DNA from: an uncultured Candidatus Rokubacteria bacterium
Lineage (GTDB): Bacteria; Methylomirabilota; Methylomirabilia; Rokubacteriales; CSP1-6
Assembly (NCBI GenBank): GCA_963771355.1
Contig: CAVYTA010000006.1
Coordinates: 416,001-480,000 of the forward strand
Length of the DNA: 64,000 bases
Direction: 5' to 3'
The notes beneath the pieces are model-generated. The model searched no databases. It was not told the origin of the DNA and saw only the letters and a program-made list of their open reading frames with translations. The first letter of the stretch is position 1, and every line of letters starts with the position of its first letter. The position numbers were made by a program, and so were the translations under genes. Positions 51,783 to 64,000 of the stretch are shown here, in pieces.

Positions 51783-52310
51783 ATGGCTGACGAGGCATTC
51801 GAGATCGTGGTGGCCGCCCACCACGCCGAGATACACCGGTACCTCGTGCGCGTGACTCGACGCCCGGGGGATGCCGATGATCTGTCTCAGGAGACCTTCA
51901 TCCGGGCCTTCCGTGCGCACTCGGCCTTGCCGGCAGGGTCGAATGTCCGCGCCTGGCTCTTCACCATCGCGACGAATCTGTGTCGAAACTACTGGCGCTC
52001 GGAGTCGCGGCGTCGCCGGGCTTACGAGGCCGCCGGCGAGACCGCGGCGCACCACGAAGAAGCCGAAGGGGAGGGCGCGATGGTCATGGAGCAGGCGAGT
52101 GAGGAGATCGGGCGCATCGTCGCCGCGCTGCCGCTCCGCCAGCGACTGGCCTTCACGCTCCGCAAGGTCCACGAGCTCGAGTACGAGGCCATCGGCCGGA
52201 GCCTCGACTGCTCTCCCGATACCGCGCGGGCGCATGTCTTCCAGGCGCTGCGCAAGATCCGACGCGGGCTCGATGCCCCGGCCGGGGCCCGCACGGAGTC
52301 CAAGCGATGA
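51783..52310 (+). CDS. ECF RNA polymerase sigma factor
   Basis: Region 2 DADDLSQETFIRA..RAWLFTIATNLCRN; region 4 LPLRQRLAF..YEAIG..TARAHVFQA. Confidence 0.92.
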   Translation: MADEAFEIVVAAHHAEIHRYLVRVTRRPGDADDLSQETFIRAFRAHSALPAGSNVRAWLFTIATNLCRNYWRSESRRRRAYEAAGETAAHHEEAEGEGAMVMEQASEEIGRIVAALPLRQRLAFTLRKVHELEYEAIGRSLDCSPDTARAHVFQALRKIRRGLDAPAGARTESKR

Positions 52311-53272
52311 CCAGAGAGCCCCGATCCTGTCGTGAGATCGAGCCGGACCTGATCGCGGTGGCGACCGCCGAGGCGCCGCCCGCCGCCGCCCGCCGCGTGG
52401 AGAGCCACGTGGCGGAGTGCGCGTCCTGCCGGAGCGAGCTCGCGCAGTATCAGACGGTCGACGGGCTCGTGACCGCGTACCGAGACACGCGCGCGCTCGA
52501 GGCCGACCCCACGCTGGCCCGCGCGCAGCTCGAGAGCCGGCTCGCGGACCTGCGCAGCCGCATCATGCGCTACGGCGTGTTCGACTCTCCGCTCGGGCCC
52601 ATCGCCATCGGCGTCTCGGAGCACGGGGTGTCCATGGTGGAGTACGTACGCCCGGCCGAGCGGACGGGCGGCGGGTTGGCGCGGCGGGCGGGCGGAGAAG
52701 CGGTGGAGGACCCCCGCCGGACGGAAGGGCTCTATCGCGAGCTGGCCGACTATCTCGACGGGCGGCGCACGCGGCTGGACTGGCCGCTCGATCTCCGGCG
52801 GACCCGGAGCGACTTCCAGCGGCGCGTCCTCGAGGCCACCGCGCGTCTTCCCTATGGGGCGGTGACCTCCTATGCGGGCATCGCGCGCGAGATCGGCGCG
52901 CCGCGCGCGACCCGCGCGGTGGCCCAGGCGCTCCGCCACAATCCACTCCCCATCGTGGTCCCGTGCCACCGCGTGATCGGCAGCAGCGGCGACCTCACCG
53001 GCTATGCGGGGACGCGCATCGGGCTCAAGCGAGATCTGCTGGCGGTGGAAGGCGTTCACACCATGCCCGGTCATGGCGACTTTCACATCGAGCGGCGCGC
53101 CGTCTACTACAAGTACCTCGATGGGGGTGAGTATTGCCTGCCGACCTGTGGTGGCATTCTCGAGAAGCCACTGGGTGACTTCACGGTATTCGGCTCGCGC
53201 GACCGCGCGGAAGCGGTGGGGCTCCAGCCCTGCACGGACTGCCGGCCCGATCTGCATCCGCTCCCCGCCTGA
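52307..53272 (+). CDS. Fusion: ZAS (zf-HC2) anti-sigma domain + O6-methylguanine-DNA methyltransferase + Ada-type Zn-binding domain
   Basis: HVAECASC; SPLG..FQRRV..RAVAQAL.HNP..PCHRVI; YCLPTC..AEAVGLQPCTDCRP. Confidence 0.85.
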   Translation: MTREPRSCREIEPDLIAVATAEAPPAAARRVESHVAECASCRSELAQYQTVDGLVTAYRDTRALEADPTLARAQLESRLADLRSRIMRYGVFDSPLGPIAIGVSEHGVSMVEYVRPAERTGGGLARRAGGEAVEDPRRTEGLYRELADYLDGRRTRLDWPLDLRRTRSDFQRRVLEATARLPYGAVTSYAGIAREIGAPRATRAVAQALRHNPLPIVVPCHRVIGSSGDLTGYAGTRIGLKRDLLAVEGVHTMPGHGDFHIERRAVYYKYLDGGEYCLPTCGGILEKPLGDFTVFGSRDRAEAVGLQPCTDCRPDLHPLPA

Positions 53273-53316
53273 CCGCTCGTACGTTTCCCGTTTTCACGCC
53301 CTTCACGGCTTTCGCC

Positions 53317-53346
53317 TTTCACGTTGCCTGCGCGCCGGTGTCTCAT
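53317..53346 (+). promoter_or_regulatory. Putative ECF-type promoter, copy 2 (TTTCAC-N13-CGGTGTCTCAT)
   Basis: Matches 51743-51772; precedes SD AAAGGAG and ATG 53375. Confidence 0.6.
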
Positions 53347-53374
53347 CTGTGAAGGCACGAGAAAGGAGCGCGCG

Positions 53375-53785
53375 ATGCACATCATCGGGACACTCATCGT
53401 GGTGGCGATACCCCTGGTCGGAATCTTCGGACTCCTGTGGCTCAGCGAGCGCTGGCAGGCGCGCCGCGAGGTCGGGCGGCACCTCCAGATCGCGGTCACC
53501 GACGCGGTGCACGGGGCGCTCGGCGCGGTGGCGGCACCGGTAGTGACGCGGCGCCCGGGCGGCGGCTGGCGGATCCAGATGCGGGTCACGCCGGGCCGGT
53601 CCGATCTGGCCGCGGCGCTCGTGCGTGTGACGGAAGATGTGATGGACCGTGCGACGGGCGAGATGCGGCGCCCCTTCGAGATCGTCCTGCTCCCGACGGA
53701 GGGGATCGGCGCCGCCGGGCACGGTCCGCGCGCCCTGGGCCAACGCAGCAAGAGCGCCGCGCCGCTGGCCGCGGCCGCGCGCTGA
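53375..53785 (+). CDS. Hypothetical protein with N-terminal TM helix
   Basis: SD AAAGGAG; hydrophobic N-terminus MHIIGTLIVVAIPLVGIFGLLWL. Confidence 0.65.
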   Translation: MHIIGTLIVVAIPLVGIFGLLWLSERWQARREVGRHLQIAVTDAVHGALGAVAAPVVTRRPGGGWRIQMRVTPGRSDLAAALVRVTEDVMDRATGEMRRPFEIVLLPTEGIGAAGHGPRALGQRSKSAAPLAAAAR

Positions 53786-53797
53786 GAGGAGGCCGCC

Positions 53798-53959
53798 ATG
53801 CTCAGCTACTACGCGCTGGAGAAAGTCGTGGAGATGCGGCTCGCCGAGCTTCGTGAGGAGGCGGCGCGGGCCCGGGCGGTGGCGTCTCCCGAGCCGGCTG
53901 CTCGGCCGGCTCCCGCCCGACCCCTTCGCTGGTTCCAGGTCCAGATCTTCGGTCGTTGA
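53798..53959 (+). CDS. Small protein, 53 aa (not in the ORF track)
   Basis: AGGAGG SD; translates as MLSYYALEKVVEMRLAELREEAARARAVASPEPAARPAPARPLRWFQVQIFGR. Confidence 0.6.
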   Translation: MLSYYALEKVVEMRLAELREEAARARAVASPEPAARPAPARPLRWFQVQIFGR

Positions 53960-53966
53960 GGGCCGA

Positions 53967-55256
53967 CTACCAGTACTGCATCGAGTCGCGCAGGATCCAC
54001 TCGAGGTCGGCGGCGCCGACCGGACGCGGCGCGCCGGCGAGAAGGCGCGGCTGCCTGAGCGTACCCTCGACGAGCGCGGGAATATCGTGCTCGCCATAGC
54101 CCACCGCGGTGAGCCCATTGGGGATGCCGGTGTCGCGCATGAGGGCGATGAGCGCGCCGGGCAGGGCCTCGCGGCGCTCGCGCTCGCCGAGCCCTTCGAC
54201 GGGAGCGCCCATCAGGGCGGCCGCGCGGAGGTGGCGGTCGGGGGCGGTGGCATAGGTGAAGCGGAAGGCCGCGGGCGCAGTGAGGATCACCGCCATGCCG
54301 TGCGGCACCATGGCATGGCGGGTGCGGTAGCCGCTGGGCACGTAATCCCGCACGAGCCCGGCGATGGGATACGCGAGCGCGTGGGGAATGTGCACGCCGG
54401 CGTTGCCGAAGCCGATGCCGGCATAGTTGGCGGCCAGTGCGAGGTTCACCCGTGCCTCGAGATCGAGCCCGTTGAGCACGGCCCGCCGCAGGTAGCGCGC
54501 GACGTGCTCCATGGCCTTCTCGCACCAGACGTCGCTGGCGGGATTGGCGCCGATATAGGCGGGCCGGTCCGGCGGATGATGCTTGGCGCGGGCATTGTAC
54601 GGGCGCGTCGTGTACGACTCGATGGCGTGGGTGAGGATGTCGGCGCCCGCCGCCGCCGTCACTTCCGGTGGGACGGTGAGGGTGTTGAGCGGATCCACCA
54701 CGCCGAGGGTGGGGCGCAGCAGCCGATGCGACACCCCCGCCTTGATGTTCTGGTCCAGCACATGGGTCACCGCCACCGCGGTGGTCTCGCTGCCGGTGCC
54801 GGCGGTGGTGGGCACCGCGATCAGGGGCTTGAGCGGCCCCGGCACCGGGACACCCTTGCCCACCGGCTTGTTGAGGTAGTCGAGTAGCGGCGCGGGATGG
54901 CAGGTGAGGAGGTTGGCGGCCTTGCACGTGTCGATGGTGCTCCCGCCGCCTACCGCGATGAGGCCGTCGAACTCCTTGGTACGCGCGTACTCCGCGGCCT
55001 CCTCCATGGACCGGTCGGTCGGCTCGACCTCGACACCGTCATAGACCTCCGCCTTGATCCCCTGCTCCTCGAGGAGCCCGCGCACGCGGTCGGGCAGGCC
55101 CGCAGCGGCGAGATTGCGATCGGTGAAGATCAGGGCCTTGGCCAGTCCCAGCCGGGCGGCGTCGAAGCCGATCTCCTCCATGGCGCCCAGCCCGAACTTG
55201 ATGGGCGACATCTCCATCACGAAGACGGTTTCCGTCGGCAGCGTCACGCCCTTCAT
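53967..55256 (-). CDS. Hydroxyacid-oxoacid transhydrogenase (iron-containing ADH family)
   Basis: GGGSTIDTCK, PTTAGTGSE, DILTHAIESYT and GNAGVHIPH motifs. Confidence 0.9.
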   Translation of the reverse strand: MKGVTLPTETVFVMEMSPIKFGLGAMEEIGFDAARLGLAKALIFTDRNLAAAGLPDRVRGLLEEQGIKAEVYDGVEVEPTDRSMEEAAEYARTKEFDGLIAVGGGSTIDTCKAANLLTCHPAPLLDYLNKPVGKGVPVPGPLKPLIAVPTTAGTGSETTAVAVTHVLDQNIKAGVSHRLLRPTLGVVDPLNTLTVPPEVTAAAGADILTHAIESYTTRPYNARAKHHPPDRPAYIGANPASDVWCEKAMEHVARYLRRAVLNGLDLEARVNLALAANYAGIGFGNAGVHIPHALAYPIAGLVRDYVPSGYRTRHAMVPHGMAVILTAPAAFRFTYATAPDRHLRAAALMGAPVEGLGERERREALPGALIALMRDTGIPNGLTAVGYGEHDIPALVEGTLRQPRLLAGAPRPVGAADLEWILRDSMQYW

Positions 55257-55720
55257 GCGGCGCCTCCCTTGAGCTGCTCCTCCGCGACGCGCTTGACGTC
55301 GCCGGCCTCCACCTGTCCCTTGTGAGTCTTCATGACGTCGCCGACCAGGCGCCCCACCTGCTTGGCGTCCGCGATGCCGAGCGCGGCGAGGCGCTCGCGC
55401 ACCAGGGCGCGCAGCGTGGTTTCGTCCATCCCGCGCGGCAGCCACCGCTCGCAGAACTCGATCTCGAAGCGGAGCTGAGCGGCCTGCTCCGCGCCCCGCT
55501 CGCCTACCTTCTCGAACTCCGCGAGCGCCTTCTGCAGCTGCTTGCGATAGGCGCCGATGACGTCGACGAGGAGGGCGTCGTCCACGGTGCCGGAGAAGCC
55601 CTTGGCCGTCCGCCGCTCCTGGAGCTTGGTCTTGAGCATGCGGACCACGTTGGCGGTGGGGGCGTCCTTGTCCTTGATGGCCCGGGTCAGAGTGTCGGAG
55701 AGCTCTTGCTCGATTCCCAT
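55253..55720 (-). CDS. GatB/YqeY domain protein
   Basis: AIKDKD..VRMLK..EIEFCERWLP..VGRLVGDVMK pattern. Confidence 0.85.
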   Translation of the reverse strand: MGIEQELSDTLTRAIKDKDAPTANVVRMLKTKLQERRTAKGFSGTVDDALLVDVIGAYRKQLQKALAEFEKVGERGAEQAAQLRFEIEFCERWLPRGMDETTLRALVRERLAALGIADAKQVGRLVGDVMKTHKGQVEAGDVKRVAEEQLKGGAA

Positions 55721-55828
55721 GCGCGCCATCCTATCATCGTCCGGCGCCGGCCATCCGGGGGCGAGAGCCAGCGACCCGCGCGGGCGCGCCGCTTGCGTGC
55801 GTCGAGGCCGCGTGCTTTGATCGTCGCC

Positions 55829-56878
55829 ATGCGCGCCACTCTCGTCCTTCTTCTCGTCACGCTCGGGCTCGCTCCCGCCGCCCTGGCCGCTCCGCCCACC
55901 CTGCCGCCGGGCTTCACCAGTGAGGTGTACGTGACCGGCGACGGTTACACGTCGGATGCCTGGCGCGGTCTGCCGGGGATTCCCTCCACGCCCACGATGG
56001 CGGTGGACGCCGATGGGGTGCTCTATCTCGCGCGGAGCGGCCGCCGCTATTCCGGCGGCGAGGCCGAGGATCTCTGGCGCGTCTACCGGATCCCGCCGGG
56101 CGGGGCACGGCTCTCGCCGCAGTCGGAATCGCGCTATCTCATCGGCCCGCCGCTGTCGAATCCCCAGGTGGCGTCGGTGCGGGGCGGGCGCGAGCTGCTC
56201 GTCACCACCTTCGACCGCGACCGTGTGGTCGGGGTGCTGTACCGCATGCTGGCGGGCCGGGCGGAGCTGCTCGCAGGCGGCACACCGCCGCGCGGGACTC
56301 CGCCCCTGCTCAAGCAGCCGGAGGGCGCGGTCGCCGACACCGCCGGCAACATCTATGTCGCCGACCGCGCGCAGGGGGTCGTGCTCCGGCTGAGTCCGCA
56401 GGGCGACGTGCTCGATCCCCGGATGGTCAGCGTGGGCCGGCCCCGCCTGCTCGCGCTGGGCCCCGAGCAGCTCTGGGTGGCGGCGGATGGGACGGCGGAG
56501 GCGCCGTGGCAGCGCGGGCCGGGCGAGATCTGGCAGGTGAACCCAGAGGGCAAGGCCACCCTGATACTTACCGGGCCGGTGGTGGCGGGGATGTCGGTGG
56601 GCCCGGCCGGCCGACTCTTCGTGGCGGATCGTCAAGGGGCCGAGATCTTCGTGCTGGGACCAGACGGGACGAAGATGGGGTTCGCGCGCTTCGGCGAGGG
56701 CGACGCGCCACGCACCCTGGCCTTCGTTCCGGTGACGCCGGAAACCCTCCGGGCGGGCATCGCCGGGGATCTCCTCGTGGTCACGGTGAGCCGCGGCGCC
56801 TGGCCCGTGAACGAGGTGATGCGTGTCTCCGGCCCCTTCGAGCGCTTCGTCCAGGATGGCGCGGCGGCGCCGCGCTGA
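55829..56878 (+). CDS. Secreted NHL/beta-propeller protein
   Basis: Signal peptide; PEGAVADTAGNIYVAD and GRLFVAD repeats. Confidence 0.7.
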   Translation: MRATLVLLLVTLGLAPAALAAPPTLPPGFTSEVYVTGDGYTSDAWRGLPGIPSTPTMAVDADGVLYLARSGRRYSGGEAEDLWRVYRIPPGGARLSPQSESRYLIGPPLSNPQVASVRGGRELLVTTFDRDRVVGVLYRMLAGRAELLAGGTPPRGTPPLLKQPEGAVADTAGNIYVADRAQGVVLRLSPQGDVLDPRMVSVGRPRLLALGPEQLWVAADGTAEAPWQRGPGEIWQVNPEGKATLILTGPVVAGMSVGPAGRLFVADRQGAEIFVLGPDGTKMGFARFGEGDAPRTLAFVPVTPETLRAGIAGDLLVVTVSRGAWPVNEVMRVSGPFERFVQDGAAAPR

Positions 56879-56893
56879 CGGAGCCACCGCCCC

Positions 56894-58408
56894 TCAGCGC
56901 CGCGGCGTCGAGCCTTCCTGCAACAGCCAGTCGATGATGGCGCCGCCGTCGTCGGCCTCGCGCGCCGGTGGCGGTGACGCCGGTGTACGCGGCGGCGGTA
57001 CCGCCCGCGTCTCCACCGAGGACGACGGCGCCTCCACCGCCGCTGGTCTCGGCAGACTCTCGGCCGCTGAGCGAGGCACTGTCGCCCTCGGGGGCGGGGA
57101 CACCGGGCTGGGCACCACGTCACGCGCGACCGGGCGCGAGGGCGGCCTCGAGGCCGGGGTTGCCGCCGGGGGGAGCGTCACCACGGGGGGCGGCGCGGGC
57201 GCGGGAGGCAGCGCGGCCGGGGGAGGCAGCGCGGGCGCGGAAGGCGGCACGGACGCGGTAGGCAATGCGGCCGGGGGAGACGGCGCGGGAGCGGGGGGCA
57301 GCGCGGCCGGGGGAGGCAGCGCGGGCGCAGACGGTAACGGCGCCTCGGCCACGGGCGGCGGCGGCGAGGCGACCTGGGTGGGTGTCGGAGCCGGCGGCGC
57401 GAGGAGCGGAACCGGGTCGGGTGCGCCGAGCCACGATCCGCCCAGTACGATCGCCACGCCGCCCACGACCACGAGCACGCCGGCGGCCAGCCAGACTCGC
57501 TTCCCGACTCCAGCACGCCCCCGATGATCCGCGCCCCGCCCCTGCCGGCCGGTCCTGTTGAATGGGCTGATCTCGCTCCAGAGATCGTTGAAGAGATCGG
57601 TGACGTCGCGGTGGCGCCGGGACGGCTCCGGTGCCAGCGCCCGCATGACGATCCGTTCGAGGGTCCGCGTGACTTCGGGCCGGAGCTTGCGAACCGCCAG
57701 GGTACCGCCGCGTCGCCGCCTCGCCAGATGCGTGCCCGGCGGCCGGCCCGTCAGCATCTCGTAGAGCAGCGCGCCCACCGCGAATACATCGCTCTGATTC
57801 GTGGCCTCGCCGGTGAGGGATTGCTCCGGCGCCTGATAGGGCGTGGTGAGTCCCCCCACCGTGCGTGCCCCCCGGCGGCTCAGCCAGCGTGCTGTCCGCA
57901 CCCAGTCGAGGCCGAACTGGGTGAGCTTGACGGTCTCCTCCCCTCCCACCAGCGCGACGTTCTGCGGGCTGAGACAGCCGTGAATCACGCCCAGCATGTG
58001 GGCGACTTCGAGGGGCTCGGCGATGCCGATGGCGAGGCGTACCGCGCGCTCCGGCCGGAAGGGCCCGTCGCGCCGCAAGGCTTCCGCGAGCGTCACCCCT
58101 TCGGGCGGCTCGAGCGCGAGGTAGAGCGCGCCGCCGGGCGTGACGCCGCACTCGTACACCGCGGCGATCGAGGGACAGCGGGCGGAGAGCGCGACGAGCC
58201 GGCCCGCGTGCTCGCGCATGGACCGGACAAGCTCCTCGTCGCGGGCGGCATCGTGAGCGAGGACGCGCAGAGTCACCCGCGCGCGGGTGTCGGCGCGCTC
58301 GGCGAGGTACAGGGCATCCTGGACCCCGGGCACGAGCGTCTCGATTGTCCGGTACGGGCCGTAGCCCGTGGGCGTGGGCTCGGTCGTAGGTACGGAGGGA
58401 AGCGTCAC
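56894..58408 (-). CDS. Membrane-anchored Ser/Thr kinase-like protein with degenerate catalytic motifs and a Pro-rich tail
   Basis: YQAPEQ and SDVFAVGALLYEMLTG conserved; VTLR, HGC and QFG replace VAxK, HRD and DFG; TM helix followed by Pro/Ala repeats. Confidence 0.85.
   Translation of the reverse strand: MTLPSVPTTEPTPTGYGPYRTIETLVPGVQDALYLAERADTRARVTLRVLAHDAARDEELVRSMREHAGRLVALSARCPSIAAVYECGVTPGGALYLALEPPEGVTLAEALRRDGPFRPERAVRLAIGIAEPLEVAHMLGVIHGCLSPQNVALVGGEETVKLTQFGLDWVRTARWLSRRGARTVGGLTTPYQAPEQSLTGEATNQSDVFAVGALLYEMLTGRPPGTHLARRRRGGTLAVRKLRPEVTRTLERIVMRALAPEPSRRHRDVTDLFNDLWSEISPFNRTGRQGRGADHRGRAGVGKRVWLAAGVLVVVGGVAIVLGGSWLGAPDPVPLLAPPAPTPTQVASPPPPVAEAPLPSAPALPPPAALPPAPAPSPPAALPTASVPPSAPALPPPAALPPAPAPPPVVTLPPAATPASRPPSRPVARDVVPSPVSPPPRATVPRSAAESLPRPAAVEAPSSSVETRAVPPPRTPASPPPAREADDGGAIIDWLLQEGSTPRR
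57191..57334 (-). repeat. Intragenic repeat, 90-bp period, encoding PSAPALPPPAALPPAPAP twice
   Basis: GGCAGCGCGGCCGGGGGAGGCAGCGCGGGCGC occurs at 57207 and 57297. Confidence 0.8.
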
Positions 58409-58418
58409 CGGCGGTCCG

Positions 58419-59447
58419 TCACTCGTTGAGGAGGTCCTTGATCGCGTCCATCACCGGATTGGCGCCCGAGGGCTTCGGCGTGGCGGCGGGCTGGCCGCCC
58501 GGCTTGCGCAGGTACTTCGCGACGCAGTCGTACTGTTCCCAGCCCTTGAGGGGGGCGTCCAGGTCCACCGACTTCCACTTCGGGTGGCCGTTCCTCACCA
58601 GCCACGCGAGGTTGGTCGAGATGGACTGCGCGAATTGCCCGATGACATCGCAGTCCTTCCGCCGGAAGTCGAACGAGATCATCACCGCCTTCACCGCCAC
58701 CGTGCTCAGCACCTGCGGCTGCCACGGGTAGGTGCGGGCCGGAATCTCGGCGCGGGTGTAGAACTCGGTGATGCTCTTGTTCGTGATCGGGAGCAGGGCG
58801 AGCCCGTCCGCCTCGGTCACTCCCTCGCTGAGCAGCTTCACGGGATAGCCGGCCACGTAGAACATGGCGTCGATGCGTCCGGCCTTCAGCTCGGCCAGCG
58901 CCTCATCGGTGTCGATGAGGACCATCTCCTTCGGCACCACGTCGGACACCTTGAACAGGAGCCGCGCGGTCAGGTAGGTCCCGCTCCCTTCCCGGCCGAT
59001 GGCCACACGCCGGTCGGTGAGGTCGTCGAAGTCGGTGATCTCCTTCCGCCCGAGCAGGTGGATCTCCTCGTTGTAGAGGGGAAACACCATCTTGGTCTTC
59101 TTGGCGATGCGCTTGAGCACCGGATCCGACTGGACGCGGGCCACGAAGGCGAGCACGTCCGACTGGACGATGCCCAGCTGGGTATTGGGCTTCTGATATA
59201 CCGCGAACACGTTTTCGATGGAGCCCTTGGAGGTGACGACGGAGAGGTCGACTCCCGTCTGCTTGCCGAGTCGCTGGAGATTCAGACCGAACTGGTAGTA
59301 GGTACCCCGCTCGCCTCCGGTGGTGATGCCGAGCTCGTTCGCGGCGCCCGCGGAGCCGGTCGCGACCAGGATCAGGGTGAGGCAGGCCAGGGTGATGCGG
59401 CTCAAGACGATGACGCAGCAATACTGTGCTGTCACTCGGTGAATCAT
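58419..59447 (-). CDS. TAXI family TRAP transporter solute-binding subunit
   Basis: TGGERGTYY, SKGSIEN, GIVQSDV, LYNEEIHL and GSGT motifs. Confidence 0.88.
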   Translation of the reverse strand: MIHRVTAQYCCVIVLSRITLACLTLILVATGSAGAANELGITTGGERGTYYQFGLNLQRLGKQTGVDLSVVTSKGSIENVFAVYQKPNTQLGIVQSDVLAFVARVQSDPVLKRIAKKTKMVFPLYNEEIHLLGRKEITDFDDLTDRRVAIGREGSGTYLTARLLFKVSDVVPKEMVLIDTDEALAELKAGRIDAMFYVAGYPVKLLSEGVTEADGLALLPITNKSITEFYTRAEIPARTYPWQPQVLSTVAVKAVMISFDFRRKDCDVIGQFAQSISTNLAWLVRNGHPKWKSVDLDAPLKGWEQYDCVAKYLRKPGGQPAATPKPSGANPVMDAIKDLLNE

Positions 59448-59702
59448 GACATCCTCCTCGTTGCGACGGGACTTACCTCCCGCGGGTGCGGTGGCGCAGG
59501 ATAGGAGGATAGATGTGAGACTGTCAAGGGGGCCTTACATCAAGAACTGTCGGAAACATTGCCTTTTTGAGGGATGCGCAGGACTTACCGTCAGATAACT
59601 AGCTGAATTAATTGACAAGTTATAATCAGCACGGAACGTGCATATAACCCGTCCGAGCCGACCGACCGATGACTCTCATGCGAATTACCTGTCGGCAGAA
59701 GA

Positions 59703-59732
59703 TTGACATCAAAACCCCCTGCAGATTAGGGT
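59703..59732 (+). promoter_or_regulatory. Putative sigma70 promoter for the peptide operon
   Basis: TTGACA (59703) - 18 nt - TAGGGT (59727), then AGGAG and ATG 59750. Confidence 0.45.
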
Positions 59733-59749
59733 GGTAGGAGCCGAAGGAC

Positions 59750-59971
59750 ATGAGCGAGCACAAGCCAGAGTCAAACGAGATTCGACGCGTCGCCGCCGAC
59801 AAGACGGGCGACAAGGCGTCCTCGCCCAGCCGCCGGCGGGCCCTCAAGGCCGCGCTGGCTGCGACCCCCATCATCATGTCGATCAAGAGTCGGCCCGCCT
59901 TCGCGGGCCCCGCCTGCGATCAGGCTACGACCAGCTGCCAGCAATCCTCCCGTCTGTCCAGTGTCCACTAG
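59750..59971 (+). CDS. Putative RiPP precursor / Tat-like small peptide (73 aa)
   Basis: SD; SRRRALK..PAFA|GPACDQATTSCQQSSRLSSVH; lies immediately upstream of PqqD/RRE and kinase genes. Confidence 0.7.
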   Translation: MSEHKPESNEIRRVAADKTGDKASSPSRRRALKAALAATPIIMSIKSRPAFAGPACDQATTSCQQSSRLSSVH

Positions 59972-60023
59972 GCCGTAAGAAGAAGTAAGCGAAGGTCGCC
60001 CCGTCCCACCCTCCTCACCCCGG

Positions 60024-60332
60024 ATTCTCTCGGCTCCACCCGATTCCTCCGAAACGAGCTGGCAGCTGGCCGAGGGCTGTCGTCTGCACTGGAAGGCCTG
60101 GGACGACGAGTTCGTGATCTTCGACGAAGGCTCGGGTGATACGCACCTGCTCGACCCGCTGGCCGCCGAGTTCCTGAAGGTCCTCGAAGAGTCGCCGGGG
60201 GAGGTGCCCGGCCTCGCCCGTCGGCTCGGGGCGCGGCTCGATCTTGCGCGCGACGCCGATCTCACCCGGCGCGTGCGCGAGCTGGTGGAGCGGTTCGTCG
60301 CCGTCGGCCTGGTGGAAGCCGCGCATCCGTGA
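60024..60332 (+). CDS. PqqD family / RiPP recognition element protein (HPr-rel-A system type); start uncertain
   Basis: In-frame WQLAEGCRLHWKAWDDEFVIFDEGSGDTHLLDPLAAEFL..RELVERFVAVGLV; frame open from 59979, first canonical start only at 60114. Confidence 0.8.
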   Translation: MLSAPPDSSETSWQLAEGCRLHWKAWDDEFVIFDEGSGDTHLLDPLAAEFLKVLEESPGEVPGLARRLGARLDLARDADLTRRVRELVERFVAVGLVEAAHP

Positions 60333-61247
60333 AGCTGGGTGCGCTGACCCTCCCCGAGCTCACCGCGCGGCTCGCGCGCGGCGGCCTCGACATGGACACC
60401 GGGCCGTTCGTGGTGCGCATCGAGACGGAGATCCCCGCGCTCGCCGAGGAGATCCATCTCCTCTACGGCGATTTCTCCGTGGACGAGGGCGGTGGCCTGG
60501 CCGACTTCCACGTGTCGGTCCGCCGCCCGGCGGGACCGCTCGGGTTACGCCGGTGGTGGCGTCAACAGGTCAAGGTCTATCTCGATGAGGCGCGTCCCTT
60601 CGAGCCCCTGCCCATTGACATGGCGGTGCCGGTGCTGGAGTGGAGCATCAACTGGTGCGCCGCCACCCAGGCCAATCAGTACGTGATGATCCACGCCGCG
60701 GTGCTCGAGCGCGACCGGCGGGTCCTCGTGTTGCCCGGCGTCAGCGGAGCTGGCAAGAGCACGTTGTGCGCGGGCCTGGCCCTGCGAGGCTGGCGGCTCT
60801 TCTCGGACGAGTTCGCCCTGATTCGTCCGGCCGACGGGCAGGTAGATCCATGGCCGCGGCCCATCAGCCTCAAGAACGACTCCATCGAGGTGATCCGACG
60901 ATGGGCTCCCGACTCGCGCCTGAGCACGCTCGTGCCCAATACCAAGAAGGGCACGATGGCGCACCTGCGCCCGCCCGCCGGGAGTGTCGAGCGGGTGGGG
61001 GAGCCGGCGATGCCGGCGTGGATCGTGTTCCCCACCTTCGCGCGCGAGGCGGCGCCGCAGCTCGACTCGCCTGCCGCGCGCCCGCGCCTTCTTCAAGCTC
61101 GCTGACTGCTCGTTCAACTACGAGTCCCTCGGCCTTCGAGGCTTCACCACGCTTTCGCGTATGATCGACGGGTGCGACGCCTACGAGTTCACCTACTCGA
61201 GCCTCGAGGACGCCCAGAGCCTGCTCGGCGCGCTGCCGCTGCCCTAG
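60329..61247 (+). CDS. HPr kinase-related kinase (HprK-related kinase A type); apparent +1 frameshift at ~61064
   Basis: IHAAVL, Walker A GVSGAGKST, FSDEFAL and PRPISLKN; C-terminus RARAFFKLADCSFNY..YSSLEDA in the next frame. Confidence 0.85.
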
Positions 61248-61260
61248 GGTCGGCCTCCTG

Positions 61261-62331
61261 ATGGACCGCGCGTTGCTTCTCCGCGCGCTCCGCGAGCCCG
61301 CGTCGATGGGCGGCCTGGCGCCCGCCGAGTGGGACGTCCTCCTCCGCCAGGGCCGGCACATGGGCGCGCTCGGCCGTCTCTGCGCCCTCGCCGCGGCGGC
61401 CGGCGTGCTGCCCGCGGTGCCGTCCCGGGTGCGCGTGCGCCTGGAGGCGGCGCTGGAAGACGTGGAGCAGCAGCACCGGCTCATCCGGTGGGAAGTCATC
61501 CGCCTCCGCCGAGCGCTGGTCGGGACCGGCGTGCCCCTCGTGCTGCTCAAGGGCGCCGCGTATCTCCACGCCGGGCTGCCAGCCTCACGCGGCCGCCAGT
61601 TCTCGGATGTCGACATCCTGGTGCCGCGCGCGAGCCTCCACGAGGTCGAGGCTGCCCTGCTCCGCGAAGGCTGGAAAATGGAAGAGATCAGCGCGTACGA
61701 CGAGCGCTACTACCGGGAATGGTCACACGAGCTTCCGCCGCTGGTGCACCCGAAGCGGCACGTGATGCTGGACGTGCATCACAATATCCTGCCGCCGACC
61801 GGGCGGCTGCGACCGGATCCGCGGCGGCTGCTGGAGGCGACGGTCCCCGTCGCGGCGGACGGACTCCGGGTGCTCGGGCCCGCGGACATGGTGCTGCACA
61901 GCGCCTGCCACCTCCTCCAGTCGGGCGAGCACGACAAGAGCCTGCGCGACCTCGGGGACCTGGACGCGCTGATACGGCAGTTCGCCGCCGCACCGCGCTT
62001 CGGTGACGAGCTGGCCGCGCGCGCGGCCGCCCTCGACCTCGAGCGGCCGCTCTACTACGCGCTGCGCTTCGCCGCGCAGCTGATCGGCACGCCGATTCCC
62101 GAGGCCAGTGCCCGCGCCGTCCGACACGCGGCGCCCCCCGCCCCCGTTCGCGCGGCCATGGACCGTCTCTTCGCAGCCACCATCCAGCCCGCACCTCCAC
62201 TGGATCCGCCGGGTCGCGTCAGGCTGGCGCGGGCGGTGCTGACGGCTCGTTACCACTGGCTGCGCATGCCCCCCTCGCTCCTTGTCCGTCATCTCGCGCA
62301 CAAGATCGGAGGAAGGAGGAAACGCGGGTGA
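61261..62331 (+). CDS. Nucleotidyltransferase family protein (NTP_transf_5-like)
   Basis: LLKGAAY, RQFSDVDILV, DVHH and LRDLGDLD motifs. Confidence 0.88.
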   Translation: MDRALLLRALREPASMGGLAPAEWDVLLRQGRHMGALGRLCALAAAAGVLPAVPSRVRVRLEAALEDVEQQHRLIRWEVIRLRRALVGTGVPLVLLKGAAYLHAGLPASRGRQFSDVDILVPRASLHEVEAALLREGWKMEEISAYDERYYREWSHELPPLVHPKRHVMLDVHHNILPPTGRLRPDPRRLLEATVPVAADGLRVLGPADMVLHSACHLLQSGEHDKSLRDLGDLDALIRQFAAAPRFGDELAARAAALDLERPLYYALRFAAQLIGTPIPEASARAVRHAAPPAPVRAAMDRLFAATIQPAPPLDPPGRVRLARAVLTARYHWLRMPPSLLVRHLAHKIGGRRKRG

Positions 62332-63392
62332 GGAGGCGCCGGCCCCGTCCGTGGCGCCGCGGGCTGCCGGGGCTGGTGGCGCTGGGCGCGGCGATGGCAC
62401 TGACCGCGTGCAGCGGGCTTCCCTGCCGCCTCGGCGCGCCCGCGGAGTTCGTCTCCCTCGGCAAGAATCCCTTCGCCGCCGCGCAGCCCACGCCGGTGGG
62501 CCGATACCTCCATACCCTCGAGGGCTGGCAAGGCGAGCTCTACATGGGCTATGGCGACTACGACGAGAATACCGGGCCCATCGAGGTGTCCGCATACAAC
62601 CCGCGGTGGAGCTCCTACGGCACCAAGCTCCGCTTTCCCACGGAGGCGATCGAGCTCTTTCGCCCCATCGGTGACCGTCTCTACGCGCCCGCCATCGATC
62701 CCCGCGGCGATGGGCCTTCCGCCGCCGTCGCCGTCGGCGAGCCGGACGGCCGCTGGTCCAACAACAAGGACGTGTGGATGACACACGTCTTCGATGTCGC
62801 CACCTTCGACGGGACTGACCTCTGGCTCGTCGGCTCGCGCAAGACTCAGGCGATCGCGGTGCGCAGCCGGGACGGCGGGCGCACATGGGAAACGGCGCTC
62901 GCGCTCGAGCCCCGGGGCGCCGACGGTGACTTTGCCCGCTTTCATTTCGTGTTCGTGCACGGCGGCCGCCTCTACGTCCAGGCGCAGGACCGGCGGGGCG
63001 GGATGTTCCCTCGCTCGAACGCCTTCGACGGCAACGGCTGGACGGACGGGCCCAATCTCCGGCCCATCCCGAACACGGGGGCCAAGCCCCTGGCCGTCGC
63101 GGGCGAGACCGTCTACTTCGGCGCCCGCGGCATCATGGCCTTCGATGGGCGCGCCGTCCGGCTCGCGCGGCCGCCCCAGACCCGCATCCACGATCTCGTC
63201 GTCGCCGAGGGGATCCTCTACGTGCTCGATGGGCGAGAAGTGCTCGGCACTCAGGATCTCGCGTGGTGGATCCCGGTGGCCACCGCGCCCGCCGGGACCA
63301 CGAGCATCGGCGTCCTGGACGGGTATCTCTACGCGGGCACCGTGGAGTCCGAGCTCTTTCGCTACTGCCGGCCGGTCCGCCCCCTTCGGTGA
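62328..63392 (+). CDS. Putative lipoprotein, beta-propeller-like
   Basis: GTGA overlap with the nucleotidyltransferase gene; lipobox LTAC; Asp-box SRDGGRTW; repeated G.LY strands. Confidence 0.65.
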   Translation: MRRRRPRPWRRGLPGLVALGAAMALTACSGLPCRLGAPAEFVSLGKNPFAAAQPTPVGRYLHTLEGWQGELYMGYGDYDENTGPIEVSAYNPRWSSYGTKLRFPTEAIELFRPIGDRLYAPAIDPRGDGPSAAVAVGEPDGRWSNNKDVWMTHVFDVATFDGTDLWLVGSRKTQAIAVRSRDGGRTWETALALEPRGADGDFARFHFVFVHGGRLYVQAQDRRGGMFPRSNAFDGNGWTDGPNLRPIPNTGAKPLAVAGETVYFGARGIMAFDGRAVRLARPPQTRIHDLVVAEGILYVLDGREVLGTQDLAWWIPVATAPAGTTSIGVLDGYLYAGTVESELFRYCRPVRPLR

Positions 63393-63432
63393 GGCGGAGG
63401 CGCCGAGAGGGCGGGGCCGGGAGCCGGCGCGA

Positions 63433-64000
63433 TCACCGCCGGTGGCCGGCGAACGGGTGCGTGCTGGACAGCCCGCCGTCCACCGCGAAGGCCTGGCCGT
63501 TGACGTAGGAGGACTCGTCGCCGGCCAGGAACAGCGCGGCGGCCGCGATCTCGTCGGGACGGCCGTGTCGCTGCAGGGGATTGAGCTGGCCGATCCGTGC
63601 CTCGGTGCCGCGCGCGCGGGCCCGATCGAAGATGAGGCGGGTCATGCCCGTCTCGATGAGCCCGGGGCAGATGGCGTTGACCCGGACGCCGGTGCCACTG
63701 AGCGCGTTGGCGGCGGTCTGAACGAGACTCACCACCCCCGCCTTGCTCGCCGAGTACGGGCTGCCGCCCGCGTTGGCGCGCAGCGCCGCCACCGACGCGG
63801 TGCACACGATGGAGCCGCCGCCCTGGGCGATCATGGCGGGCGCCGCGTGCTTGATCATGAGCCAGGGCCCGATGAGGTTGACGCGCAGGATCTCGTGCCA
63901 CTGCTCCACCGTCTGCTCGAGGAGCGGGATGCGCCCGCCGCTCACCCCGGCATTGGCGAACACCGCGTCCACGCCGCCCCACTCCGCCACGCAGCGTCCG
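63433..64000 (-). CDS. SDR family oxidoreductase (5' end outside the window)
   Basis: [17 protein letters not shown] and VDGG motifs. Confidence 0.9.

Follow-up and report, generated by a model that had tools for sequence, protein, structure and literature searches.

The 73-residue protein encoded at 59750-59971 of the window (the whole 64,000-nucleotide stretch of Rokubacteria DNA analysed here) is likely the substrate of an adjacent cassette consisting of an RRE, a kinase and a nucleotidyltransferase. From its sequence and those of its relatives we propose, with moderate confidence, that the RRE guides phosphorylation, possibly followed by hexosylation, of serine in this precursor, and that Tat export and signal-peptidase cleavage after an AFA motif would follow. 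The precursor would supply the missing substrate for the catalogued, unexplained HPr-rel-A enzyme trio. If its leader does both jobs, it would be a Tat counterpart to Sec-exported RiPPs, in which the signal itself recruits the enzymes. The system is directly testable with four small genes, and it would provide a clean setting in which to settle the chemistry of PF14907 enzymes such as PsmN and LppN. Few members of the family are as short as this copy, which thus points to a minimal acceptor motif.

The precursor gene and its cassette

The features of the region are as follows.

59522-59539, no strand assigned: near-palindromic box TGTCAAG-N-CTTACA, loosely like PEP-CTERM motif 1 (tentative)
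59750-59971, + strand: precursor gene, 73 aa, with signal/leader residues 1-52 and a 21-aa core
59828-59848, + strand: twin-arginine motif S27-R-R-R-A-L-K33, with RR at -25/-24 from the predicted cut
59849-59884, + strand: h-region A34-I45, 12 uncharged residues, short but hydrophobic
59867-59890, + strand: predicted RRE-docking segment P40-I-I-M-S-I-K-S47 (putative binding site), with Pro at -13, hydrophobic residues at -11/-10 and S/T at -9
59885-59905, + strand: basic c-region ending in the signal peptidase I motif A50-F-A52
59906-59968, + strand: core, 21 aa, containing 5 Ser, 2 Thr and 2 Cys
60051-60332, + strand: stand-alone RRE (TIGR04353, PF05402), true start uncertain
60329-61247, + strand: HprK-related kinase A (TIGR04352), with an apparent frameshift at 61064-61066
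61261-62331, + strand: NTP_transf_5 (PF14907) nucleotidyltransferase with a DxD motif, predicted to act as PsmN/LppN
62328-63392, + strand: unannotated 354-aa gene with a lipoprotein-like N-terminus, overlapping the nucleotidyltransferase stop

Translation of 59750-59971 recovered each element that the initial annotation had read here (SRRRALK, a short hydrophobic stretch, AFA and a 21-residue core from 59906), and its count of Ser, Thr and Cys in the core was exact. K-S-R-P sits between the uncharged stretch A34-I45 and AFA, and an AGGAG lies 9 nt 5′ of the ATG. The open reading frame is more than a chance occurrence, since 45 homologues were found in the protein collection with E values down to 1e-36; the closest named relatives come from Rokubacteria/Methylomirabilota MAGs. 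In the 46-row alignment of these sequences S25-R30, K33, A35-A37, P40, M43, S44, S47-F51, S62 and S70 are invariant, and mean column identity to the precursor drops from 0.94 in residues 25-52 to 0.65 in the n-region and 0.48 in the core. The precursor had no match in Pfam or NCBIfam, seven of its relatives matched no family model at E≤1e-8, and the ESM Atlas returned only unnamed clusters at ≥0.9. Its leader is present in one copy in the host genome, as are the RRE and the nucleotidyltransferase. A short-read contig of run X1, which may be the source sample, spans the stretch; its 2 substitutions and 1 indel all lie outside the precursor gene. RNA-labelled runs contain 54% and 20% of the sampled words of 59500-62400, which we do not take as expression.

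All three components of the HPr-rel-A system are present over their cut-offs: the kinase TIGR04352 (305.8 bits against a cut-off of 200), the chaperone TIGR04353 (59.4 against 35) and PF14907 (190.8 against 31.2). Judged by these scores, the cassette is a member of that catalogued system, for which no family model covers the upstream precursor. A literature search on the HPr-rel-A model names found no paper naming TIGR04352 or TIGR04353. Walker A of the kinase is kept at 74 of 75 loci and its SDE at all 75, and R-x3-D-[IVL]-D of the nucleotidyltransferase at 74 of 75. PDB sequence searches returned nothing for the nucleotidyltransferase and, with the kinase of a relative, only HprK at E~1. The apparent kinase frameshift is a one-base assembly error, because the extra base at 61064-61066 is absent from all relatives and from the short-read contigs of X1 and of X6, a run from another study; a kinase pseudogene is ruled out on the same grounds. 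The kinase of a sister genome carries a different one-base insertion, 22 nt away.

The AlphaFold model of the RRE (pLDDT 92.7) gave its best Foldseek matches to the lasso B1 proteins TbiB1 and TfuB1, and its strands are acidic. No ATG, GTG or TTG lies upstream of the first strand in the window gene, and across the precursor's lineage (20 loci: L001-L004, L078 and L107-L121; 59972-60062 in the window) no such codon is found in frame upstream of the first conserved Trp at 14 loci; overall, a canonical start in this position is present at 71 of 78. Nine loci have in common an in-frame GTC 19 codons upstream of the Trp (near 60003 in the window), several of these codons standing about 7 nt after AAGG or GAGG, and ATT at 60024 is another candidate. 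This pattern suggests non-canonical initiation and a low ratio of RRE to precursor. A start at GTG 60114 is unlikely, as the conserved strands E3-6 and E12-17 would be lost, and fusion of precursor and RRE by readthrough was ruled out by their relative frame, which is 0, +1 or +2 among the 20 loci.

Upstream of the precursor, and divergent from it, is a gene for a TAXI solute-binding protein. Downstream, the 354-aa gene gave weak matches to propeller families and stands behind the cassette at only 4 loci, all of Rokubacteria type; its lipoprotein-like product could be a periplasmic partner of the short cores.

Linkage of the leader and its putative export and docking features

The genomic setting was surveyed at 78 loci, 75 found in GTDB via the kinase and 3 from relatives. 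RRE, kinase and nucleotidyltransferase occur together at all 78. A leader HMM seeded on 21 of these loci matched 72; the six misses were three divergent leaders recognised by eye, two precursors cut by a contig end and one locus without upstream DNA. A precursor with this leader lies beside the cassette at 77 loci, the 78th being cut off upstream, and the association of a leader HMM with PqqD/kinase genes, put forward earlier as a check, was thereby borne out. In a set of 61 related genomes, TIGR04352 passed its cut-off in 8, and these were the same 8 that had a strong leader match, adjacent in each case; 6 of the 8 leaders were part of the HMM query, and kin are not independent. The cassette is spread over Proteobacteria, Acidobacteria and Rokubacteria. 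Searched against 1.84 billion representatives, the leader profile hit 2,569 clusters at E≤0.001 (about 2,500 at 50% identity), some of which may be ordinary Tat signals; the 120 longer matches listed had neither a Pfam domain nor an informative name.

Gene order varies among the loci. L048 (3093-4603) has two precursors in tandem, L063 (10443-11286) has precursor and RRE downstream of kinase and nucleotidyltransferase, and at L039, L050, L056, L060 and L070 the nucleotidyltransferase lies upstream on the opposite strand.

The neighbourhood survey covered 387 heuristically called genes of ≥90 aa within 4 kb of 75 cassettes, grouped into 182 clusters whose representatives were all scanned against Pfam at E≤1e-10 or 1e-12. 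None of the 182 was an S26, B2 or C39 peptidase, and the exporters among them amounted to one ABC exporter singleton and one 3-member MacB cluster. Within 52000-64000 of the window there is no cluster-encoded SpI-like peptidase or MsbA-like exporter. The proposal that Tat and signal peptidase would stand in for a missing exporter and protease is supported at the level of sequence comparison: no leader peptidase recurs nearby, and few loci have an ABC exporter. Of the 75 loci, 12 have a trypsin-like protease close by and 33 have genes of EPS/PEP-CTERM type inside the 4-kb limit; in this window no EPS genes are near the precursor.

For the comparison of leaders we used 70 distinct sequences anchored on the Pro, three of them from loci with assembly faults. 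RR is present in 70/70, a count that, like that of Pro, is somewhat inflated because the collection patterns contained both. SRRR is invariant in all 46 close homologue rows, and the conservation of RR that an export role calls for was thus upheld at both ranges. The TatP pattern RR.[FGAVML][LITMVF] (PMC6085387) fits 64 of 70 leaders, including SRRRALK of the precursor, which has Ala where Tat has Phe; RRxx-hydrophobic-K/R occurs in 65 and the canonical RRxFL[KR] in 6. Strict AxA at -3/-1 is found in 56 and small-x-small in 61, while the 45 parsed close homologues have AFA (30), AFG (14) or AFS (1). The host genome encodes TatC and LepB (signal peptidase I). PF10518 matched 21 and TIGR01409 11 of 66 leaders, weakly (E≤1), and neither matched the 73-aa precursor itself.

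The host genome's own Tat signals were represented by 44 TIGR01409 matches (45 over cut-off, 1 dropped by pattern). The uncharged run of the precursor is 12 residues against a median of 17.5, and 2 of the 44 are as short; its hydrophobicity is at the high end, 41 of 44 being no more hydrophobic. A basic c-region is usual (33/44). In the AlphaFold model of a 163-aa relative the chain is disordered to residue 42 and forms a confident beta-rich domain from 43, matching the predicted cut; this model had no PDB fold match at E≤0.001. Long passengers mostly have even numbers of Cys (2 in 38 and 4 in 13 of 70). Tat tolerates small unfolded hydrophilic substrates, and most Tat signals are also able to serve Sec, as described in PMC13673990. 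The initial reading of the leader as a Tat signal is thus supported by RR and AxA conserved across phyla and by TatC and LepB, but the precursor itself is without a Tat HMM match.

A second set of constraints overlaps the export signal. P-13, hydrophobic residues at -11/-10 and T/S at -9 (the last in 96%) recur in the 70 leaders. Ordinary Tat signals often have a Pro somewhere in their h/c-region (36/44), but the P-x-hydrophobic-x-T/S motif, or a Pro at RR+12, was found in 0/44. On this comparison, export would call for far less constraint than P-x-[IV]-[LM]-[TS]-[LIF] shows, since the segment is absent from all 44 Tat signals of the genome. RR and Pro are 12 residues apart in 61 of 70 leaders and 15-16 apart in 3, and RR shifts as a unit in leaders with insertions. 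Ser at +2/+3 is present in 53 of 70 (shuffled mean 17, maximum 27).

These positions correspond to those of the LPP leader, which has Y-16, P-13, V-11 and L-10 and for which an RRE complex has been crystallised (PMC13381572). There, LppB covers K-18 to Q-7 of LppA and needs the aromatic residue at -16 for binding, phosphorylation is confined to S3, and an enzyme of the signal-peptidase type cleaves after -1 (PMC13381572). RR at -25/-24 of the Tat-type leaders falls outside the LppB footprint, and the -16 residue is Ala in 51%, not aromatic. The suggestion that the leader doubles as an RRE docking site therefore gains from the Pro motif in LPP register and from linkage to RRE, kinase and nucleotidyltransferase at 77 of 78 loci, but loses from the missing aromatic residue; on balance the segment remains a candidate site. 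At L088 and L096 (G036, G060), related twin-arginine leaders with basic cores have a Tyr ahead of the Pro motif (AYxxPxVL-type) and adjoin more distant HprK-like kinases. They are possible intermediates between LPP-type YxxP leaders and the Tat-type family.

The core, a proposed pathway and its rivals

Within the core, S62 (59933) and S70 (59957) are invariant in the 46 close homologues and S66 (59945) is kept in 45. The motif S-x3-S-x-[NRHK]-[LM]-S is found in 45 of 46, the exception being a copy in a sister genome, which looks frameshifted. Ser at +2/+3 occurs in only 2 of 45 members of the precursor's lineage and is absent from the precursor. S62, S66 and S70 are taken as candidates because of that absence, and are likely phospho-acceptors; for the same reason the acceptor site in this lineage is a guess. 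The expectation of conserved core hydroxyls was correct for these three serines but not for the Thr residues, which vary. The suggested disulfide loop did not survive as a family feature: C56 and C63 are both kept in just 21 of 46 close homologues, one is kept in 1 and neither in 24, which rules it out as a defining trait.

In the wider family passengers range from 9 to 194 aa, most relatives having 40-190. Long passengers end in (C/A)-hydrophobic-x-S in 44 of 54 cases (shuffled 2.8) and, in a second set, in 68 of 107 (shuffled 4.2). T60-S66 of the precursor fits [ST]-x-[SAT]-[CAS]-x-x-S, a pattern shared by 28 of the 46 close members and by 36 of the 70 distant ones (shuffled ~3). Both patterns were written after viewing the sequences. 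The precursor core thus looks like a minimal passenger in which only the C-terminal serine motif is retained. Passengers of the P0047 family (L027, L029, L031-L033, L036, L038 and others) are ~120 aa long and share an RSSN behind the cut and a pair of Cys, both features being invariant, as well as an S-x-x-A-x-x-S helix at the C-terminus; the model is confident and beta-rich, with no PDB match.

The pathway we propose starts from the gene linkage and leader conservation shown in this analysis. By the LPP register, the RRE would grip P40-S47 in the cytoplasm, and this grip would also mask the h-region, holding back export until modification is done. Following the precedent of PsmK and LppK, the kinase would add one or more phosphates, with S62, S66 and S70 as candidates. 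The PF14907 enzyme might then cap the phosphate with a hexose or a nucleotide, for which PsmN is the weaker precedent. As the motif and the genome content suggest, TatC would read SRRRALK and LepB would free the 21-aa core on the periplasmic side; there, members with both cysteines could form an oxidised C56-C63 pair. Finally, the product might act in the cell envelope or the exopolysaccharide matrix; here the gene neighbourhood is the guide, and this step is the most speculative of the series.

A bolder form of this proposal, which we advance only tentatively and would not wager on, is that a Tat signal and an RRE leader of LPP/lasso type have become one, the RRE serving as both enzyme adaptor and export gatekeeper. 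In some 2,500 clusters, passengers of 9 to ~190 residues would be phospho-glycosylated on serine in the cytoplasm, then exported by Tat/LepB without a dedicated exporter or protease. If true, the leader would be a portable 28-residue modify-then-export tag, and the system a new bacterial route to protein phosphoglycosylation, one linked with exopolysaccharide loci.

Other readings of the same data must be weighed against leader-guided modification followed by Tat export. The leader might be only an enzyme-recognition handle, with RR kept by the acidic RRE or the kinase and the peptide staying in the cytoplasm or leaving otherwise. The short h-region, the precursor's failure to match a Tat HMM, the rigid RR-to-Pro spacing (12 in 61/70) and the acidic RRE strands would fit such a handle. 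We nevertheless regard it as unlikely, given an AxA that keeps its position in 56 of 70 leaders with no peptidase encoded nearby, a canonical RRxFLK in 6, an RR outside the known RRE footprint and the mostly even Cys counts of long passengers. Alternatively, the peptide is modified and exported by Tat with the signal serving export only, and the RRE and the enzymes read the core, for example a C-terminal S-(C/A)-x-x-S. This would be as in bufferins, whose signal peptide is dispensable for modification (10.1101/2024.03.18.585515), and the C-terminal motif of 44 of 54 long passengers (shuffled mean 2.8) points the same way. Set against it, P-x-hydrophobic-x-T-L-x-S in LPP register is far more constrained than in ordinary Tat signals (0/44), and the cores are too diverse for a single RRE site beyond a short motif, which makes core reading quite improbable.

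A different objection is that the peptide is co-transcribed without being a substrate, acting as a regulator or carrier while the kinase and nucleotidyltransferase work on another protein or on polysaccharide intermediates. EPS/PEP-CTERM-type genes near 33 of 75 loci and the unsettled nucleotidyltransferase chemistry could be cited for it. But RRE, kinase, nucleotidyltransferase and leader occur once each in the host genome and all adjacent, the serines are invariant in an otherwise variable core and LPP is a direct precedent, so that we see little chance of its being right. A last reading, to which we give the least credence, has the signal read by Tat or Sec yet left uncleaved, or export proceeding through Sec, and the product membrane-anchored or Sec-exported. 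Sec is a possible route for most Tat signals as well (PMC13673990), a 21-aa core is too short to fold and AFG replaces AFA in 14 of 45; on the other hand, -3/-1 are small in 61 of 70 leaders, RR is invariant and a 12-residue stretch with a central Pro would make a poor membrane anchor.

Known systems and upstream DNA

LPP clusters are similar in having a stand-alone RRE, a kinase of HprK-like type and an NTP transferase with no cyclase; in a signal-peptidase-type cut that separates a conserved leader from a variable C-terminus; and in Pro-13, hydrophobic -11/-10, the Ser near +3 of the wider family and an often seen polysaccharide-locus context (PMC13381572). A YxxPxVL...FETxxS leader, a cluster-owned SpI-like peptidase, LppS, and an MsbA-like exporter are peculiar to LPP (PMC13381572). 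Here, in contrast, there is no Tyr-16 and no cluster peptidase or conserved exporter; RR, an h-region and AxA are found instead. Membership in LPP fails on YxxP, LppS and the exporter. Deletion of LppN changed nothing, and the terms 'Tat', 'twin-arginine' and 'signal peptide' are absent from the main text of that report (PMC13381572).

The lasso peptides paeninodin and pseudomycoidin likewise combine an HprK-type Ser kinase with an uncharacterised NTP transferase; the Ser of pseudomycoidin is phosphorylated by PsmK, and hexose on the phospho-Ser requires PsmN (PMC6993621). Unlike lasso systems, the present one has no macrolactam cyclase, no B2 peptidase and no Asp/Glu pattern of a ring acceptor, and its conserved serines are internal rather than C-terminal. 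Lasso membership was rejected: neither cyclase nor B2 is present in the window, and the Asn-synthase neighbour, when tested, proved to be the PEP-CTERM amidotransferase TIGR03108.

RiPPs that leave by a general export pathway are known with Sec signals and with lipoprotein signals. Bufferins and lipoprotein-pathway RiPPs resemble the present system in that a general export signal replaces exporter and protease and in their protein-sized cores, and differ in their Sec/SPII signals and MNIO enzymes (10.1101/2024.03.18.585515; PMC13056109). The signal here is of Tat type and seems to contain the RRE motif. 'Tat' and 'twin-arginine' are absent from the main texts of PMC12452194 and PMC13056109, as is 'Tat' from the accessible text of the bufferin preprint (10.1101/2024.03.18.585515). 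In the main texts of the largely open-access literature covered, we found no description of this Tat-leader system; LPP or RRE-mining supplements could list its clusters.

The box at 59522-59539 is the sole match to its pattern in the genome and is missing, on a rough scan, before the 4 PEP-CTERM genes. Related boxes precede 7 of 65 loci against 0.5 expected. PEP-CTERM motif 1 is a 17-nt motif ending in TTTACA (PMC1569441), and elsewhere in the host genome PrsR, exosortases and four PEP-CTERM proteins are encoded. The divergent TAXI gene may be the one to which the box belongs. No sigma-54 site was found, and a sigma-54 promoter was rejected for want of enrichment (2 of 65 loci against 1.2 expected). 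Between the TAXI gene and the precursor, a palindrome, GCACG-GAA-CGTGC, at 59629-59641 is identical in L001-L004, L109, L111 and L115 and is likely an operator. Elsewhere in the window, at 55322-56878 on the - strand, the frame of an NHL-like protein continues downstream into a YqeY-family C-terminus, which may reflect a fusion, a missed stop or an error in the long reads.
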